This document shows positions 5,824-48,690 of a stretch of DNA of 64,000 nt, in pieces. Location of the stretch: IMG/VR virus record IMGVR_UViG_3300037521_000114, positions 37,195 to 101,194 of that record, one strand, 5' to 3'. Every line of letters starts with the position of its first letter. Position 1 is the first letter of the stretch. A program made the position numbers and the translations under genes. This DNA comes from a virus. The notes under the pieces were generated by a model. It did no database searches, had not been told where the DNA came from, and worked only from the letters and a program-made list of their open reading frames with translations.

Positions 5824-8800
5824 TCAACTATTAGATATTGTAACGGAAGTTTGCATATCATGTATTACAAGTCGCTTGTCTGCATTGTCATTTAAGTAAG
5901 CGAACTTGGCGAATATATGAGTGTCACGCATACGTGAATAACGATTATCGAGAACTGGTCCTTGTACACCTTGATGAGACTCATACAGTGCTCTTGGAAT
6001 AGTATATCGCCATGTACGCATCCTACGCTTGATGTTCTGTCCAGATATGAGTTCAATCTCTCCTGTGTGCTGATAATCATTCCACATGGTAATGTGATCG
6101 AAAGTATCACGAGTATCTACATTATCGACAAACGATTCTGTTAACCACTCAAAATTATTGAAGATGCCGATCTCAGTTACCGAAGGGTTAATAAGAAATG
6201 TTATGGAAATCTCTCTGTAATTTCCATAGATCATACCTCTTGCTCCTGCAAAATCATTATGCCTGTGAAACTGATGAAATGAACCACTGGTTCCGAGAAC
6301 TTTCTCAAGATAGTTGATTACATAAAATGGTTGATTGTCTGTAAAGGTGACAAACGATTGAGTCATTTCATTGTATACGAGTCCAAAATGCTCAGTGTTA
6401 TCCACGATATAAACTTCCCTGTATTCAGGATCATAGTATAAGTGCATAGCTCCATCAATAGTAATGGTCATGTCCTTAGCTTCCACGATATTCTCTCTAA
6501 ACCAAGCACTCATACCTCTCATCATGGAAATCTCTTCCGGACCTTTGGTGTGTTGGAACATGGACTGATTGATCACATCAACCCAATAGAGAGCGTTAGG
6601 TGTCTGAAGTAAATGTCTCCAATGGGAACATCCCATGTTAGTCTTACCGTAGTCATATCGGTCTAAGATACCAGTTGAACCAAGAACTATTTGAGCACCT
6701 GTATCTGTTGATGAAACCAATGCTCTCTCGTTTACACTCAGTAAACCAAATGCTTTCGGTTGAAAGAATAAAAGTTGATTACCCATTGTTTCCAATACAG
6801 TCAAGGGACCAAATTGAGGATCAACTTCTATAAAGGAATCTGTACGGAACCTGAGCCAACTGTCAGAAGCCTCACCATTGATCTTCTTGTCGGAGGCATA
6901 CACTCGTGTATCAATATCTGAGAGTGGTCTCCAATCAAAGGGTCTTGGAATGAATATGATAGTATCATTCTCTTTCGAGTAAACAGTATTATATCTGTAA
7001 AGGTCTTCGAATTGGAAGAGTATATTAGTATAAAGACCTTCTGATATTTCTCCGTCAGCCCATATCCCTGCTTCATCATGCAGGAAGATTGCTTCGTATT
7101 GACCACTCTGTTCAGTGTAAGGCTCGTCAACTCTTAGACCAGCATTTATACTTGATTCACATGGAAATGAAATAACATCCGGTAATACACCACTGGTTAA
7201 TGCTTCTTCATTCTGACGAGCGTTCCACATATATTCGAACGCTACCAGATAAGTATCACCACCTCTGGCTTCAGCAACTACATCAAATATACCATTTTCA
7301 TCATGAACATCACTACAAGAAATATACTGACTTACACTTCTTGCATTGTAATCAGTTCCTCCATATTGAGTAGTAAATACATTACGCCTGTAATTTAGAA
7401 TAGGGATTCCAGTATTGTAATCGTCCTCTTTCTCGTAGTAAAACCCACTGGTAAATAGAAAACATATTCCCTTGTCAGTGAAATTGGTAAGATTATTTAT
7501 AGAGTAACTGTTACCTGAACCAAAATTCTTAGCAATATCTGACTGAAGAATCATTTGACCTTCAAGAACATCTGCGAAACTATCACTATGAAATTCATTT
7601 CCTGACACAGCACTTCCAGCAGGTGTTTGTTGAGCTGATAAACCAGAGGGATCATCGTACTTGTAGTACTTGAGGCGATCATCAGGAGTCGTATCCTGAT
7701 ACAGACTTCCGAGTACTGTACCTATAACCTGAATAAAATCAGTTCCTTTTGTTGAAAGGTTTTTATTGAATGAAATCTCAGGAGAGTGAAACTGTACTGT
7801 AGAATTAGTACTATTTGCTGCTCCCCATTCCTGATGAAAGAAACTACCACTTGCACCAGTAACAGGCATACCTATACCTTGAGCAAGAATACTTCTATCA
7901 TTACCACTACGTTTAACTCTTACAATTTCAAAACTCTCTGCCCCATCAGGTATATTCTTGATAGTAAACTCAACATATAAAGGATATGCAAGTAATTCAG
8001 GTATGTCATTAGTAAACGCATAGTATGGAGAAGCAGGAGTTTGATCCGTACTCATGGAAGGCATCCGGATGTCAGCTATCCATTTAACAAAAGATGCACG
8101 TCCTTTCAAATCAAAGAATACAATCCCAAAGCGATAGGTTTCATCCCTTTGAAAACTCACTCTTTCACCAGCGTTCCATGTAGATTTATAACTATTAAAA
8201 CGTCGTTGATCACCTACAAGTATTCCACCACCGTAATTATTATAATTACCACCATTGGTAATGTCAACACTCAATGCACTTGCATACGCCTCTCTGCGAA
8301 TCCTGTACTCTACGTTAGGACCCTCTCCACCAACAGTTTCACCATCAGATTGATACATGAATCGCCAAGTATGATCTCCATCATTATCGAGATCATTGAA
8401 CTGGTTGATAGCATCGAACTCTTCATCAATAAGGTCCCATGTAGCAACAACAGGAACACCGGAAGCTGTTACATTTCCACTATCGTCTATCTCATAATAA
8501 CTTACAAGATCACTATCGTAGATTCTTGCTACCTGCGAACCTTGAGTAGCAGCACCGTAAATAGCGTTATAGTTAAAAGTAAGTGAGTCGTCTTCCCATC
8601 CAGAATACCGATAGGCTCTTGCATCGTAGTCAACATCAAAATCTTCAACGATTACATTTCCTGCAAACAAAATGTTATCTTTTGTTTCGATAACCTCTGC
8701 GGAGAACAAAGTAGTTTGCAGCAATCTAAGTTCATTAAGAGTATAACTTCCAAAGGATTCTCCGGTATCAATAAACTGATATGTTCCTGCACCGGGAATA

Positions 8801-9714
8801 CTTTCTTCTTTAACAATACGAAGCTCAGGTTCAAGATTGAGTGCACTATAATGTATGGCTACAACACGAATCCTTGTGTAGTGGTCCGATTCAACTACAA
8901 TTTCATTGACAGTTGATTTGCCTGTATTTACATCAATTTCCGAACCCTTGTAGTCTCTATCAATAAATCCAAAATCACTACTCTCACTGAGGTTAATAAG
9001 ATTACTTACAGGAGAAAATACAGTTTCACCACCGTTAAGAGTATAAAGCTGGTAAGCATACTGGACTCTTCCAGACTTGAGATTTCCCGAACCCATATCA
9101 ATGAGTGTAGGTTTAGTAATTTCAACATCACCGAGAACTTCAAGTCGATCCGTAGGAATACTTGTAAGATCATTGGTGTCTTCATCATAAACTATATTTA
9201 TATACCGAAGTCGATTATATCCATCTACCCAATAGACTTTCTGAACGTACTGATTCTCATATCTTCCAACACATTGAATAGGATATTCTGTAGAAAAACT
9301 GAGTGCGTTTCTGTATATCCAACTTCCTCCGTTTATTTCATAATCAGGAAGAGGACTCAGTACCATAGTTCCTGTAAGAGCTTCAAGGTCTGCGATAGGA
9401 ACTTTAATAATAAAATCATTGTTTGCAGCAGGATCAGGTGGACCTGAAACATTCTCTGTGATAAATAATATGATGTTGTCTCTGAGAATACAGTATCCTA
9501 CAATCGTAACAGGAATACTTCCTCCGGTTCCATTGACGTTGGATATATCAAGACGTTCGATAGTTCCTGCCATGTCTTCAAGAGCACCACTACTCACACC
9601 GTCCTGAGTCAGGATACGAACATTATTCGCTCCATAGTAATGACGGTTGTCATACTTGTTCTTGGATGAATCCCTGTCCATCCCTGCTGAAAATTCATTA
9701 CTAAGTACTGCCAT
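5824..9714 (-). CDS. Tail stabilization/muzzle protein (P22 gp10-like, Crassvirales)
   Basis: 1296 aa beta-rich; N-terminal F..GM..D, KVYWVDG, YRFGIVFFD, C-terminal RMRDTH; position next to ring proteins. Confidence 0.8.
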   Translation of the reverse strand: MAVLSNEFSAGMDRDSSKNKYDNRHYYGANNVRILTQDGVSSGALEDMAGTIERLDISNVNGTGGSIPVTIVGYCILRDNIILFITENVSGPPDPAANNDFIIKVPIADLEALTGTMVLSPLPDYEINGGSWIYRNALSFSTEYPIQCVGRYENQYVQKVYWVDGYNRLRYINIVYDEDTNDLTSIPTDRLEVLGDVEITKPTLIDMGSGNLKSGRVQYAYQLYTLNGGETVFSPVSNLINLSESSDFGFIDRDYKGSEIDVNTGKSTVNEIVVESDHYTRIRVVAIHYSALNLEPELRIVKEESIPGAGTYQFIDTGESFGSYTLNELRLLQTTLFSAEVIETKDNILFAGNVIVEDFDVDYDARAYRYSGWEDDSLTFNYNAIYGAATQGSQVARIYDSDLVSYYEIDDSGNVTASGVPVVATWDLIDEEFDAINQFNDLDNDGDHTWRFMYQSDGETVGGEGPNVEYRIRREAYASALSVDITNGGNYNNYGGGILVGDQRRFNSYKSTWNAGERVSFQRDETYRFGIVFFDLKGRASFVKWIADIRMPSMSTDQTPASPYYAFTNDIPELLAYPLYVEFTIKNIPDGAESFEIVRVKRSGNDRSILAQGIGMPVTGASGSFFHQEWGAANSTNSTVQFHSPEISFNKNLSTKGTDFIQVIGTVLGSLYQDTTPDDRLKYYKYDDPSGLSAQQTPAGSAVSGNEFHSDSFADVLEGQMILQSDIAKNFGSGNSYSINNLTNFTDKGICFLFTSGFYYEKEDDYNTGIPILNYRRNVFTTQYGGTDYNARSVSQYISCSDVHDENGIFDVVAEARGGDTYLVAFEYMWNARQNEEALTSGVLPDVISFPCESSINAGLRVDEPYTEQSGQYEAIFLHDEAGIWADGEISEGLYTNILFQFEDLYRYNTVYSKENDTIIFIPRPFDWRPLSDIDTRVYASDKKINGEASDSWLRFRTDSFIEVDPQFGPLTVLETMGNQLLFFQPKAFGLLSVNERALVSSTDTGAQIVLGSTGILDRYDYGKTNMGCSHWRHLLQTPNALYWVDVINQSMFQHTKGPEEISMMRGMSAWFRENIVEAKDMTITIDGAMHLYYDPEYREVYIVDNTEHFGLVYNEMTQSFVTFTDNQPFYVINYLEKVLGTSGSFHQFHRHNDFAGARGMIYGNYREISITFLINPSVTEIGIFNNFEWLTESFVDNVDTRDTFDHITMWNDYQHTGEIELISGQNIKRRMRTWRYTIPRALYESHQGVQGPVLDNRYSRMRDTHIFAKFAYLNDNADKRLVIHDMQTSVTISNS

Positions 9715-40090: not shown

Positions 40091-40278
40091 TCGCATCCAG
40101 CGCGTGGTCTGCATTGCAAGGCAATGACAGTCCCGGCAGTTGCAACTCACTGTCGTGAGTAATCAAGAGTTGCATTCTCGTGTATTTGCATAGTCTTTCC
40201 CATCCTATTTGACCACAGTGATGGTAACTATGTAAATGCGCTCATTATAATTAACATAGCGTTTATGTTGATTACCCT

Positions 40279-40351
40279 CTCGTTTGAGCGAGTATAAACC
40301 AGTGTGATTAAGCTCAAAGCGTCAATGTATTTATCATACATTGGGTTCACA
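40279..40351 (+). ncRNA. Pistol self-cleaving ribozyme (copy 1)
   Basis: P1 CUCG/CGAG with loop UUUGAG pseudoknotted to CUCAAA; UAUAAA linker; P2 UGUGA/UCACA; UUAAG; GCG; P3 UCAAUGUAU/AUACAUUGG; G-U cleavage site at 40345/40346. Confidence 0.9.
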
Positions 40352-40625
40352 AATAGTACATTCAGCCTAATCAATGCTCATAGTAGCCTCTTGTAAGGTT
40401 GGATGTGCTTATTACACGCCAATGTGTTGAAGGACGTTACACATTGGGCATTTACCTAACTCTTAGTGGATTGTACATTAAGCTAAGAGGACAGCCAGAG
40501 GGTTGGAAGTGCACATTCAATGTCCCAGAACCTGAGCAACGCTGATAAAAGGCTCATTTACTCCTGTACCTTACAATTACTACCAGACGCAGGTTGCAAG
40601 TTATCTGGCAGGAGTATTTTTATTA

Positions 40626-40693
40626 CTCGTTTGAGCGAGAATACAGTCCTTAGGCTCAAAGCGTTATCAATTCACATAGAATTGATAGGTGGA
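40626..40693 (+). ncRNA. Pistol self-cleaving ribozyme (copy 2)
   Basis: CUCGUUUGAGCGAG...UCC UUAGG CUCAAA GCG; P3 UUAUCAAUUC/GAAUUGAUAG; G-U at 40689/40690; short P2 UCC/GGA. Confidence 0.8.
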
Positions 40694-40712
40694 ACCAATA
40701 CAATCTGTTATT

Positions 40713-45551: not shown

Positions 45552-45863
45552 ATGAACCAGAACAAGAAAATTGCCATAGTTGTGCAGTATTATGGCGATC
45601 CGACGAAAATCGTAGATGACCACGATTCAGAACCTATTTACCTGACTCAGATAAACGAGAGAAGGTTCAAAGATATATTTGAAGCCATTCGGTTCTTACA
45701 AGAATGTAATAGTCCCATTACCGTAGTTGATGAGATATTACCTCTTCCAAAAAGACCTAAAGGCTTCAAATTTATTTTACCCGAAAGAAACATCAAGATT
45801 AAACATCAAGCAGATAATGCACTTGACTCTAAATTTGATTTTGATGCAATGGATTGGGGATAG
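45552..45863 (+). CDS. Hypothetical protein
   Basis: 103 aa. Confidence 0.5.
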   Translation: MNQNKKIAIVVQYYGDPTKIVDDHDSEPIYLTQINERRFKDIFEAIRFLQECNSPITVVDEILPLPKRPKGFKFILPERNIKIKHQADNALDSKFDFDAMDWG

Positions 45864-45892
45864 AATTTAGATTGTGGTTCCAATCTGCACAG

Positions 45893-46033
45893 GGGATAGT
45901 CAAGTTAATGGTTGCAATCCCAAAAGACCACTCTTTACATTTGATACAGTTAGGCAGGAATTAACGCTGCCTTATGAACCGAGATAGGACTGAATGGTGT
46001 AAATGAAGTTGATTAAATACCTTGACTATCCCT
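45893..46033 (+). ncRNA. Putative ~140-nt structured ncRNA
   Basis: Perfect 12-bp closing stem GGGATAGTCAAG/CTTGACTATCCC enclosing nested stems TTTACA/TGTAAA, CAGT/ACTG and AGGCAG/CTGCCT. Confidence 0.55.
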
Positions 46034-46038
46034 TCTTC

Positions 46039-46124
46039 GGGGCGGACGGTGACATATATAGTTACGCAGGAAATGATGATTTTCAGCTATGTATATGAGA
46101 GTTCAATTCTCTCTCGCTCCACTA
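46039..46124 (+). ncRNA. Miniature tmRNA-like (tRNA-like-domain) RNA
   Basis: Acceptor GGGGCGG/UCGCUCC with G3:U70 and discriminator A; stemless D region ACGGUGAC; long stem instead of an anticodon arm; T arm GAGAG-UUCAAUU-CUCUC. Confidence 0.65.
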
Positions 46125-46190
46125 CGTTACCATAGATAGGTAATGTTATTTCCATATAAATTCTTAATAACTCACTAAATTCAAAAGATT

Positions 46191-46697
46191 ATGAGTAAGA
46201 TCAATGTTGCCGCATGGCAAGAGAAAGAGGGTAATACACTCTCAGATGACAAGTTGATTCGTATCAACGACAACAAACCCGAATTTGGAAGCGTGATGGT
46301 ATCGTCGCAGGTTCGTGAGTTCACTCCTGGTGGATTTACTAACAAGCGTACCAAAGTTGCTTTCATTACTGGTCGGATGGATGACCTGAAAGAGATGATC
46401 AAAGATCACAAATTGAAGAACGGCAGTGATTTCAATGCTATCTTCGGTGAGCACAAGATTGTCACAGTTGAGAAGCTGGAAACTCAGGTTGGACCGAAGG
46501 ATGGATTCTCTGAGAAGATGAATCCAACCACAGGTGAAATTCTGACTCAGGATGGTGTAACCATCGTGCGTAGGTCATATCTGGTTGGAGAAACCAGTCC
46601 GATGGTTGACATTCTGCTCGAACATGATCGTGACGAAGTTGCTGCCGATCCTGCTGTAAAGGAGTTTGACGCTGCTATGCAGACGGGCAAGAAGTAG
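46191..46697 (+). CDS. Putative ssDNA-binding (OB-fold-like) protein
   Basis: NKPEFGSVMV...KVAFITG...KMNPTTGE pattern; highly biased codons; followed by a terminator and PolB. Confidence 0.45.
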   Translation: MSKINVAAWQEKEGNTLSDDKLIRINDNKPEFGSVMVSSQVREFTPGGFTNKRTKVAFITGRMDDLKEMIKDHKLKNGSDFNAIFGEHKIVTVEKLETQVGPKDGFSEKMNPTTGEILTQDGVTIVRRSYLVGETSPMVDILLEHDRDEVAADPAVKEFDAAMQTGKK

Positions 46698-46728
46698 TAA
46701 TTGTCAACAATTCTCAGTAATTTTGATA

Positions 46729-46769
46729 GGAGGCATCTCGCAAGAGGTGCTTCCTTTTCTGTTTTTTTT
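46729..46769 (+). terminator. Intrinsic terminator
   Basis: GGAGGCATCTC-GCAA-GAGGTGCTTCC followed by T runs. Confidence 0.75.
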
Positions 46770-46791
46770 AATCATTAAATGGTCGTGTATT

Positions 46792-48690
46792 ATGGAACAA
46801 GACAAGATCGTATGGGTCTATGACCTTGAGCAATTTGAAAACTTTCATTCAGCGACATTTGTAAACAGAGATAACAAGAAGGATCACAGAGTATTTTACA
46901 TTCACGAGAGCAAAGATCAGCGACAAGATTTATATGATTTTCTACAGGATGAGGTATCAGGACTAATCGGATTCAATAATGTGAACTATGATTACCCATT
47001 ACTACATTACTTCATTCATTTGATGGATGCTTACAATGGAACTGCAACACTACCAGTAGAAAGATTTCTCGAACAGATGTACTTTGAATCACAAAGAATC
47101 ATTAAAGAAGAGTATTCAGCTATACCACATTGGAAAGTACACATACCACAACTTGACTTATTCAGGATACATCACTTTGATAATAAGAGCAAGAGAACTT
47201 CTCTGAAGGCTGTAGAAATAGCCATACAGTATCCCAATGTCCAAGATATGCCATTCGAGCATGACCATTGGGTAACAGAGGATGAGATTTTAGATATTCT
47301 CAACTACAATATGAACGATGTTCAAGCTACTCTCGCATTTTATTTGCTGAGTACAGACATGGTTGATCTAAGGAAATTACTATCGAAGACATATAACATA
47401 AATGTCAGGAACGCCAATGATCCCAAAATTGGACAAGAGATATTCGGTAGAGAGATTGCACGTAAGAAACAGGTGCATTACAATAGAATAAAGGATATGC
47501 GGACATATAGGCGTAGTATCGACCTCGGTAAGTGTCTGTTACCGTACATAGCCTTTAGCAACAAAGAATTTCAGGACTTACACAAGTTCTTCAAAGAGAC
47601 TACGATTTATACCACCTATAAACCATTTGAAAAGAGTGTTATTTACAAAGGATTCAAGTATGATTATGGTGTTGGAGGTATTCACGGTTGTATTGACTCA
47701 GGAGTGTATGAGAGTACTGATACTCACATGATTCTTGACATAGATGTAGCAGCATATTACCCTGCTCTCGCAATACAGAATGGATTTTATCCTCAACACC
47801 TCGGACGAACGTTTGTCGAGGTGTATAAGGAGTTATTTGATACAAGGATGGAAGCCAAGCGGACAGGTAACAAACCCGTCAATTCAGGCTTAAAACTTGC
47901 GTTAAATGGAGTGTATGGTAAGAGCAACGACCAATACTCCTTGTTTTATGACCCCATGTACACTATGAGAGTGACTGTTAATGGTCAATTACTACTGACC
48001 ATGTTAGCAGAATGGATGGTGGATGAAATTAAAGACATCACCATGATTCAGGCAAATACCGATGGTATCACAATTAAGATACCTCGTGATCAGTATGATG
48101 CTGTCATGGCTATTTGTAGAGATTGGGAGATTAAGACAGGAATGATACTTGAGTATGGAGAATATAAAAAGATGATAATCAGAGATGTAAATAACTATCT
48201 CGCACAAACTGTCGATGGATACGTTAAACCTAAAGGATGCTTTGAGATAATTCCCATGCAAAATGGAGCAGTTGCTTATAATAAGAACTGGTCAATGCGT
48301 GTGGTTCCCAAAGCTATCCACGCCTTCTATCTTGAAGGAATACCTATTGCAGATTTCATTCATAAACACGAGCAAATATATGACTTCGGAATTGGATTTA
48401 GAGCGAGAAAGAGTTGGGACATTATCTATACTCATATTGAAAATAACGTTAAAGTCCGAGACAAGCAACAGCGTACTCTTAGGTATTATGTTTCCACCAC
48501 AGGTGGTTCAGTCACAAAACAAAACGAGGATGGTAGGGTTATCTCGCTGGAATCCGGAAGGGCTGTAACTATCTTTAACAGAGCATATCACATACCTTTT
48601 GAAGATTATAATATCGACTACTCGTATTACATCAAGGAAGCGAATAAGATCAAATATGCTGTCGATGACGGTCAAACAAAACTATTCTAA
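46792..48690 (+). CDS. polB: Family B DNA polymerase
   Basis: Exo motifs YDLE, GFNNVNYD, YNMND; Pol motifs DVAAYYP, KLALNGVYGKS, NTDG; likely start MEQDK at 46792. Confidence 0.92.
   Translation: MEQDKIVWVYDLEQFENFHSATFVNRDNKKDHRVFYIHESKDQRQDLYDFLQDEVSGLIGFNNVNYDYPLLHYFIHLMDAYNGTATLPVERFLEQMYFESQRIIKEEYSAIPHWKVHIPQLDLFRIHHFDNKSKRTSLKAVEIAIQYPNVQDMPFEHDHWVTEDEILDILNYNMNDVQATLAFYLLSTDMVDLRKLLSKTYNINVRNANDPKIGQEIFGREIARKKQVHYNRIKDMRTYRRSIDLGKCLLPYIAFSNKEFQDLHKFFKETTIYTTYKPFEKSVIYKGFKYDYGVGGIHGCIDSGVYESTDTHMILDIDVAAYYPALAIQNGFYPQHLGRTFVEVYKELFDTRMEAKRTGNKPVNSGLKLALNGVYGKSNDQYSLFYDPMYTMRVTVNGQLLLTMLAEWMVDEIKDITMIQANTDGITIKIPRDQYDAVMAICRDWEIKTGMILEYGEYKKMIIRDVNNYLAQTVDGYVKPKGCFEIIPMQNGAVAYNKNWSMRVVPKAIHAFYLEGIPIADFIHKHEQIYDFGIGFRARKSWDIIYTHIENNVKVRDKQQRTLRYYVSTTGGSVTKQNEDGRVISLESGRAVTIFNRAYHIPFEDYNIDYSYYIKEANKIKYAVDDGQTKLF

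Follow-up and report, generated by a model that had tools for sequence, protein, structure and literature searches.

A tag-less RNA of the tRNA-like-domain type, very probably derived from a phage tmRNA gene, upstream of the DNA polymerase gene of a marine-sediment phage

A putative RNA gene of 83 nt was located at positions 46039-46121 of the window, the 64,000-nucleotide stretch of DNA analyzed here (bases 37195-101194 of the 101-kb IMG/VR virus record IMGVR_UViG_3300037521_000114, which is rated complete). The element, called mini-tmRNA in the following, is with high confidence a real RNA gene and a descendant of a phage-encoded tmRNA, from which the tag has been lost and only the tRNA-like domain (TLD) has been kept. 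Its most likely function is that of a competitor for host SmpB and trans-translation, an assignment which rests on the precedent of mycobacteriophage DS6A and is given a little less than an even chance of being correct. The best explanation as a whole, a tmRNA-derived TLD-only RNA acting as a trans-translation competitor, is held with about even confidence. Near-identical DNA was present in marine-sediment metagenomes from several studies, and no RNA sequencing run was among those listed for this stretch.

The mini-tmRNA sits in a 327-nt non-coding stretch (45864-46190) with an ORF of 103 aa (orf103) on the 5' side and an ORF of 168 aa (orf168), then a DNA polymerase gene, on the 3' side. The features of the locus are collected in Table 1, where related loci are designated by the letter L and a number. 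The motif TGTGGTTCCAATCTGCA was conserved in the window, L002, L004 and L171, and a diverged version was seen in L169. It may serve the non-coding locus as a promoter or as a 5' element. A promoter and terminator scan of the locus gave nothing above the shuffled background, and no + strand terminator or convincing promoter was seen within the intergenic region. A 6-bp hairpin (GUUACC / GGUAAU, 46126-46146) lies directly 3' of the trailer. Similar hairpins come after the corresponding elements of L002, L171 and L004; none of these hairpins is a T-rich terminator.

Table 1. Positions of the features of the mini-tmRNA locus in the window
Feature	Position	Strand	Remarks
orf103	45552..45863	+	Kept upstream neighbour of the tmRNA/mini-tmRNA slot
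17-nt motif TGTGGTTCCAATCTGCA	45873..45889	+	Start of the non-coding locus, directly 3' of orf103
Module U	45892..46032	+	Structured RNA, 141 nt, 12-bp closing stem; 6 nt 5' of the TLD; conserved in L169, L171 and L004
Acceptor stem, 5' strand GGGGCGG	46039..46045	+	Pairs with UCGCUCC at 46114-20 (7/7); carries G3 of G3:U70; also G7:U66
Stemless D-loop analogue ACGGUGAC	46046..46053	+	8 nt; G10, G11, A14 and C15 invariant in 4/4 mini forms
P2 (H2-like) helix, 5' strand AUAUAUAGUU	46054..46063	+	10/10 pairs, 2 of them G-U
Cap	46064..46084	+	21 nt; replaces mRNA-like domain and pseudoknots; holds a small 6-bp hairpin; no conserved ORF
P2 helix, 3' strand AGCUAUGUAU	46085..46094	+	Partner of AUAUAUAGUU
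Linker AU	46095..46096	+	2 nt in 4/4 mini forms
T arm GAGAG / UUCAAUU / CUCUC	46097..46113	+	5-bp stem, T-loop UUCAAUU
Acceptor stem, 3' strand UCGCUCC, and discriminator A73	46114..46121	+	Contains U70; A73 is the A at 46121
3' trailer CUACG	46122..46126	+	CCA not encoded; CUAYG conserved across the reduced clade
orf168	46191..46697	+	Kept downstream neighbour; predicted fold a small beta-barrel
DNA polymerase (phrog_1252)	46666..48690	+	Query for finding and placing relatives

The element was first described in a sequence-only reading as an acceptor stem of seven base pairs with G3:U70, followed by A73, together with a stemless D loop, a P2 of 10 bp and a T arm, lacking an anticodon arm and an encoded CCA. 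This description was confirmed base for base, and all structural elements were found at the positions given in Table 1. G3:U70 and A73 are alanine identity elements. Neither a D stem nor an anticodon stem-loop is present at a conserved position in the window or its relatives, and no 5-bp stem with an anticodon loop of 7 nt is found. The resume codon, tag ORF, stop codon, helix H5 and pseudoknots of a tmRNA are missing, corresponding to 286 tmRNA model positions deleted in the alignment described below. The D-loop of 8 nt compares with 13-14 nt in the full-length relatives, and the 2-nt linker with mostly GGAC there. The full tmRNA genes of the relatives likewise have no encoded CCA.

The sequence-only reading had also pointed to a frame from GCA to UGA (46066-98) that spells AGNDDFQLCI*, and had likened it to an ANDENY-type tag, with chance as the alternative. 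The letters read as described, but the likeness to a tag did not hold, as no frame was conserved among the four mini forms presented below. The AGNDDFQLCI tag was rejected as a chance occurrence; the frame extends across the 3' strand of P2 as far as the T stem, and the relatives show nothing equivalent.

ARAGORN at default settings, a check proposed in the sequence-only reading, called no tRNA or tmRNA in the whole window, and its intron and mitochondrial modes gave nothing at this site. Rfam at gathering thresholds gave nothing at the mini-tmRNA. In a sensitive local search of 401 nt, the Rfam tmRNA model RF00023 was aligned end to end (model positions 1-374) at 22.9 bits and E = 1.8e-7, far below the gathering cut-off of 47 bits. 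As had been anticipated, both ends of the model aligned and the middle was deleted, and tmRNA beat the other members of the tRNA clan. The mini form of L002 scored very similarly against this model, at 23.6 bits. The tRNA-Ala-like acceptor stem and T arm speak for an ordinary tRNA or a degenerate one, such as a tRNA-Ala that lacks the D stem, and ARAGORN relaxed to -ps80 did call a 'tRNA-Ile(gat)' here. However, the relaxed run gave 51 calls in 101 kb, most of them spurious, and the cloverleaf drawn was poor. With the three stricter ARAGORN modes empty, no anticodon stem-loop and the Rfam clan won by tmRNA, the tRNA reading is considered highly improbable.

The predicted fold of the mini-tmRNA had a z of -2.7. 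The unconstrained MFE structure (-25.8 kcal/mol) uses an alternative hairpin and not P2; the consensus TLD fold, at -25.4, is within 0.4 kcal/mol of it and becomes the MFE structure (-27.3) in a natural variant with C at 46057. A loose TLD-like architecture by itself arises about 3 times per shuffled genome, and the architecture alone is for this reason weak evidence. A covariance model built from the four mini forms (R1) scored its seeds at 82-102 bits, the DS6A RNA at 30.8 bits and a biased set of ordinary tRNAs at 17-33 bits. Since the scores of DS6A and the tRNAs overlap, R1 cannot separate TLDs from tRNAs and no conclusion was drawn from it. Searches by sequence were of little help. No match was obtained by blastn against 50,697 phage records, nor in IMG/VR with an exact 25-mer covering the T arm and acceptor strand. 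The IMG/VR pattern GGTGAC...GAGTTCRAYTCTCNC returned mostly ordinary tRNAs, with the L004 contig as the only relevant match, and the 15-mer TGGTTCCAATCTGCA returned chance matches and two already known relatives.

Relatives were found by a search with the polymerase, which gave 47 viral and 50 metagenomic loci. With orf168 as query against viral contigs no related loci were found; ten orf168 homologues were found in a separate search. The search for homologues in phages, also suggested in the sequence-only reading, revealed the same fold in L169, L004 and L002, and full tmRNA in the same slot of other relatives. In six of these (L005, L006, L007, L010, L013 and L175) a full-length tmRNA just 5' of the polymerase was identified by both ARAGORN and Rfam, at 72-107 bits against the cut-off of 47. 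A tmRNA was called by ARAGORN in L011 too, L173 holds the cut 3' end of a full tmRNA, and L016 and L017, of a more distant group, also have a tmRNA. The polymerases of the relatives with full-length tmRNA outside this distant group are 60-64% identical to that of the window. The gene order orf103 - RNA - orf168 - polymerase was observed by tblastn throughout the relatives. A GOLLD RNA (242 bits) was seen at L010:1047-1441, 1.6 kb 5' of the full-length tmRNA.

The content of the slot varies among the closest relatives. L169 has a mini form of 96 nt and the structured RNA termed module U, in the same layout as the window. L004 (equal to L168 and L136) has a mini form of 94 nt in addition to a 236-nt TLD which encloses module U. 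Only a mini form of 116 nt is present in L002, and only a 218-nt TLD around module U in L171. In a maximum-likelihood tree of the polymerase the window, L003, L002, L171, L004 and L169 formed one clade (100/100), nested among clades with tmRNA. The synteny and the polymerase tree argue for descent from a phage tmRNA gene. The sequence-only reading had proposed a miniature tmRNA mimic with almost no mRNA domain; this was right, and the relationship appears to be stronger than mimicry, as synteny and tree indicate descent. From the comparison of the loci it is evident that a full tmRNA was present between orf103 and orf168/DNA polymerase in the ancestor of the clade. One lineage lost the mRNA-like domain and the pseudoknots but retained the acceptor stem, the T arm, the base of helix P2 and a D-loop of reduced length. 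The loci indicate that a single reduction of the ancestral phage tmRNA would be the simplest history. Two blocks, CCAUGUA and UACACAAAUU, still match the tag-coding stretch of L175 collinearly in the mini form of L002, where this remnant is interrupted and an early UAA is present.

L002 and L171 are sister phages (tree support 98/96). Their flanks are nearly identical but their contents are reciprocal, the 116-nt mini form only in the one and the U-containing TLD only in the other. Such a pattern points to recombination between tandem TLD modules at their similar 3' ends.

Selection on the fold was studied with the four mini forms, those of the window, L169, L004 and L002. All four were anchored identically, with an acceptor stem of 7 bp, a D-loop of 8 nt, P2 starting from nucleotide 16, a linker of 2 nt, the T arm, the discriminator and a CUAYG-like trailer. 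P2 consists of 7-10 consecutive anchored pairs in each of them, formed by unrelated sequences, and acceptor pair 5:68 covaries (C-G, U-A and A-U). In the model-fitted alignment, a small sample of four sequences, 98.3% of the cells were paired and 5 of 15 pairs were changed on both sides. The covariation score of these four sequences was 0.511 compared to 0.259 in shuffles, with none of 500 shuffles as high, and slid-partner controls gave a covariation of no more than 0.16, except for 0.24 at slide -2. G3:U70 and A73 were kept in the window, L169, L002 and all full-length relatives. The L004 mini form has G3:C70, A2:U71 and U73, and its fold is intact. Contigs from three other metagenome runs showed a single substitution in 86 nt, 46057 U>C, which turns P2 pair 4 from U.G into C-G, and their flanks differ at many sites. 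Taken together, the compensatory changes, the Rfam alignment, the z of the fold and the near-invariance across runs make the mini-tmRNA more than a chance occurrence. On the evidence of these substitutions the TLD fold is under selection.

The same data bear on the possibility of a functionless relic, a lost tmRNA gene whose decay is incomplete. Decay is indeed apparent in the internal region, where 21 to 60 nt lie between the P2 strands with sequences unrelated between forms; the tag remnants of L002 and L004 contain a premature UAA, and the sisters L002 and L171 carry different modules. Against this, all three helices have been maintained by compensatory changes where polymerases are only 70-86% identical, the lengths of D-loop and linker are exactly conserved, and the RNA is nearly invariant across the three other runs while the flanks vary. 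A relic is therefore regarded as improbable.

Two further candidates were rejected. An attP remnant was ruled out, since the TLD has both of its halves, with covariation between them, and the phage yielded no tyrosine integrase. A bacterial Y RNA of the YrlA type gave no Rfam Y-RNA match at E up to 10, and the Ro60 gene of this phage is 74 kb away with an adjacent candidate RNA of its own. The Ro60/TROVE protein of the phage has 589 aa and is encoded outside the window (L280:6865-9280), with a non-coding stretch of 650 nt 3' of the gene. In this stretch an RNA of 269 nt (8795-9063) with an acceptor-like closing stem and a T arm was observed, which is a Y-RNA candidate. It is followed on its 3' side by three tRNA genes (Ile, Tyr and Gln), none with an encoded CCA.

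Module U was not related to any known RNA in the searches performed. It had no Rfam match, and a pattern search of IMG/VR gave L004 and chance matches in coding sequences, with no homologue outside the clade. Compensatory changes support its long helix, with both partners altered in 5 of 26 predicted pairs. A second TLD scaffold, with acceptor pair A3:U70, surrounds module U in L171 and L004, where module U takes the position of tag template and pseudoknots. In the contig of run X6, one of the three other runs, from a hydrothermal-vent/sediment metagenome, 113 nt of module U (45908-46020) were replaced by 9 nt and the mini-tmRNA was intact. The association raises the possibility, judged unlikely, that a new RNA in this clade has come to use the TLD of tmRNA as its modular handle. 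Together, module U and TLD would then form one unit, in which RNase P cleavage at the TLD matures U, or in which the TLD delivers or stabilizes U. If true, this would be a neofunctionalization of a tmRNA gene and not a simple SmpB decoy.

More generally, the TLD could be a tRNA-like processing or stability handle comparable to a t-element, kept mainly because it is cut by RNase P, trimmed at its 3' end and given CCA, with SmpB uninvolved. Such a handle would cut an early transcript, mature the 3' end of module U and set the 5' end of the orf168-polymerase message. In keeping with this, 6 nt separate the end of module U from the TLD in the window and in L169, and a second TLD scaffold encloses module U in L171 and L004. 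The mini-tmRNA is always accompanied at its locus by further tRNA-like modules (module U, or a TLD around it), and the L004 mini form has lost alanine identity with its fold perfect. The lack of a + strand terminator and of a convincing promoter in the intergenic region makes co-transcription followed by processing plausible. On the other hand, the TLD persists without module U in L002 and in the X6 contig. G3:U70 and A73 are dispensable for RNase P, yet they have been kept in three of the four mini forms while neighboring pairs covary, and the invariant GG...AC of the D-loop together with P2 exceeds a minimal RNase P substrate. The processing handle is considered an unlikely explanation, on a par with the joint unit of module U and TLD.

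With respect to known systems, the mini-tmRNA is, as far as its sequence and predicted fold go, a TLD-only (CDS-less, DS6A type) tmRNA, with a complete TLD and P2 base closed by a short loop, and it is closer to tmRNA than to tRNA. This class is already described. New features are the series of reduced forms documented at a single orthologous locus, a D-loop and a linker that are unusually short, and the association with module U. Mycobacteriophage DS6A is listed as 'TLD only' in papers on tmRNA databases (PMC4131195, PMC11915505). Its RNA, which is unannotated, was located at L278:28478-28557 and was aligned end to end with RF00023 at 43.2 bits, below the cut-off. The DS6A RNA (tmRNA Website Phage__Mycobacterium.9) resembles the mini-tmRNA in being phage-encoded and about 80 nt long, in having G3:U70, A73, a stemless D-loop, a T arm and a short P2 capped by about 20 nt, in lacking a CDS, pseudoknots and encoded CCA, and in its mode of alignment with RF00023. 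It differs in its D-loop of 13-14 nt and linker of 4 nt (GCAC), compared to 8 and 2 nt here, and in its higher score of 43.2 compared to 22.9 bits. Moreover, P2 is 10 bp and A-U rich in the mini-tmRNA, and a full-length ancestor is documented in sister phages here. The two RNAs have no sequence relationship or common gene context, and a different host world separates DS6A from this marine sediment phage.

Standard one-piece tmRNA (RF00023), including that of L005, L006, L007, L010, L013 and L175, has in common with the mini-tmRNA the TLD, the genomic slot, the strand, the alanine identity and the lack of an encoded CCA, but is 320-390 nt long with resume codon, tag ORF, stop codon, H5 and pseudoknots. 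The CDS-less tmRNAs of organelles, found in jakobid and oomycete mitochondria (RF02544) and as forms of about 65 bp in Mallomonadaceae plastids (PMC11915505), have likewise lost the tag template and kept the TLD. However, these are mostly permuted two-piece genes with a dedicated imported SmpB, whereas the mini-tmRNA is in one piece and would depend on host SmpB. TLD fragments made in the laboratory, such as the T. thermophilus construct of the 5' 25 nt, UUCG and the 3' 34 nt (PDB 2CZJ; Shimizu and Ueda 2006, as cited in PMC3929946), are similar in that TLD and P2 base are closed by a loop. These fragments have canonical D-loops and proven SmpB binding, whereas SmpB binding by the mini-tmRNA is a prediction.

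No SmpB gene and no second, full tmRNA was found elsewhere in the genome of the window phage, and a CCA-adding enzyme was looked for in the phage and not found. The possibility that orf168 is a hidden SmpB was examined. It had no Pfam match (E up to 10) and no meaningful match to PDB sequences, and its structural model (pLDDT 86) gave weak OB/SSB-like matches (Foldseek E at least 0.08; VIA Z at most 4.4), SmpB not being among them. A scan of genome contigs returned only distant polymerases, in MAGs, and no pointer to the host.

For the preferred function, competition for host SmpB, the following steps, all inferred by analogy, are proposed. Host RNase P would cut the transcript at 46039, and the host would trim the 3' end after A73 and add CCA. 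G3:U70 and A73 would allow charging by host AlaRS. The mini-tmRNA would bind host SmpB; in its charged form, Ala-TLD, it may in addition interact with EF-Tu and with stalled ribosomes. It would thereby compete with host tmRNA. The net effect would be a damping of host SsrA tagging and rescue during infection. According to reviews, TLD fragments bind SmpB at the elbow and D-loop and, together with SmpB, drive peptidyl transfer and template-free polyalanine synthesis (PMC3929946, PMC3968760). A DS6A-like TLD-only RNA in E. coli strongly inhibits tmRNA whether charged or not, perhaps by titration of SmpB (Mao et al. 2009, as summarized in PMC4131195 and PMC11915505). The sequence-only reading had proposed an SmpB decoy or a tag-less rescue RNA, in agreement with this account of the DS6A type. 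It is uncertain whether the inhibitory property carries over to the mini-tmRNA. The shortened D-loop and linker lie in the elbow contacted by SmpB, and SmpB binding can therefore not be assumed. The L004 mini form has an intact fold without G3:U70 and A73, which suggests that alanylation is not needed everywhere and fits a charge-independent role, either as a decoy or as a processing handle.

Since it has no tag template and no stop codon, the mini-tmRNA cannot complete trans-translation. A tag-less rescue or alanine tailing could still be envisaged, in which Ala-TLD and SmpB take over the nascent chain at stalled ribosomes and free it or add an alanine tail, but no degradation tag. Phage proteins made from cleaved mRNAs would in this way be spared. 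The alanine identity set conserved in the window, L169 and L002 would suit such a role, as would the peptidyl transfer and polyalanine obtained in vitro with SmpB and a TLD fragment (PMC3929946) and the conservation of CDS-less tmRNAs alongside SmpB in mitochondria and some plastids (PMC11915505). However, normal termination and release are impossible without a stop codon or template, the mini forms have no conserved mini-ORF, and L004 is without G3:U70. In addition, the passages on the DS6A-like RNA in PMC4131195 report it as an inhibitor and not as a rescuer. Tag-less rescue is hence judged rather less probable than a processing handle, though not as improbable as a relic.

That phages can interfere with bacterial ribosome rescue by way of TLD-only tmRNAs is known, but this route has hardly been studied. 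The phage clade described here provides a natural reduction series, from 320-390 nt over 116 nt and 94-96 nt to 83 nt. Selection has kept the acceptor stem, the GG...AC in a D-loop of 8 nt, the base of P2 and the T arm throughout the series, and the tag, the pseudoknots and, in one lineage, the alanine identity were dispensable. The series supplies natural variants with which the minimal needs of an SmpB ligand or an inhibitor of trans-translation can be addressed. Genes of this kind are missed by standard annotation tools; none of the four mini forms and none of five additional TLD-only candidates was detected by ARAGORN.

These five mini-tmRNA-like candidates were met by chance on unrelated IMG/VR contigs, at L105:8366-8448(-), L080:3011-3088, L082:10082-10172, L120:7652-7730 and L062:13099-13168. 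All have an acceptor stem and a T arm and are ARAGORN-negative, with G3:U70 in four of them and A3:U70 in L062. Two Pistol ribozymes, on the same strand and about 350 nt apart, were observed at 40278-40350 and 40625-40694 of the window, with scores of 53.7 and 55.3 bits, above the Rfam gathering score.
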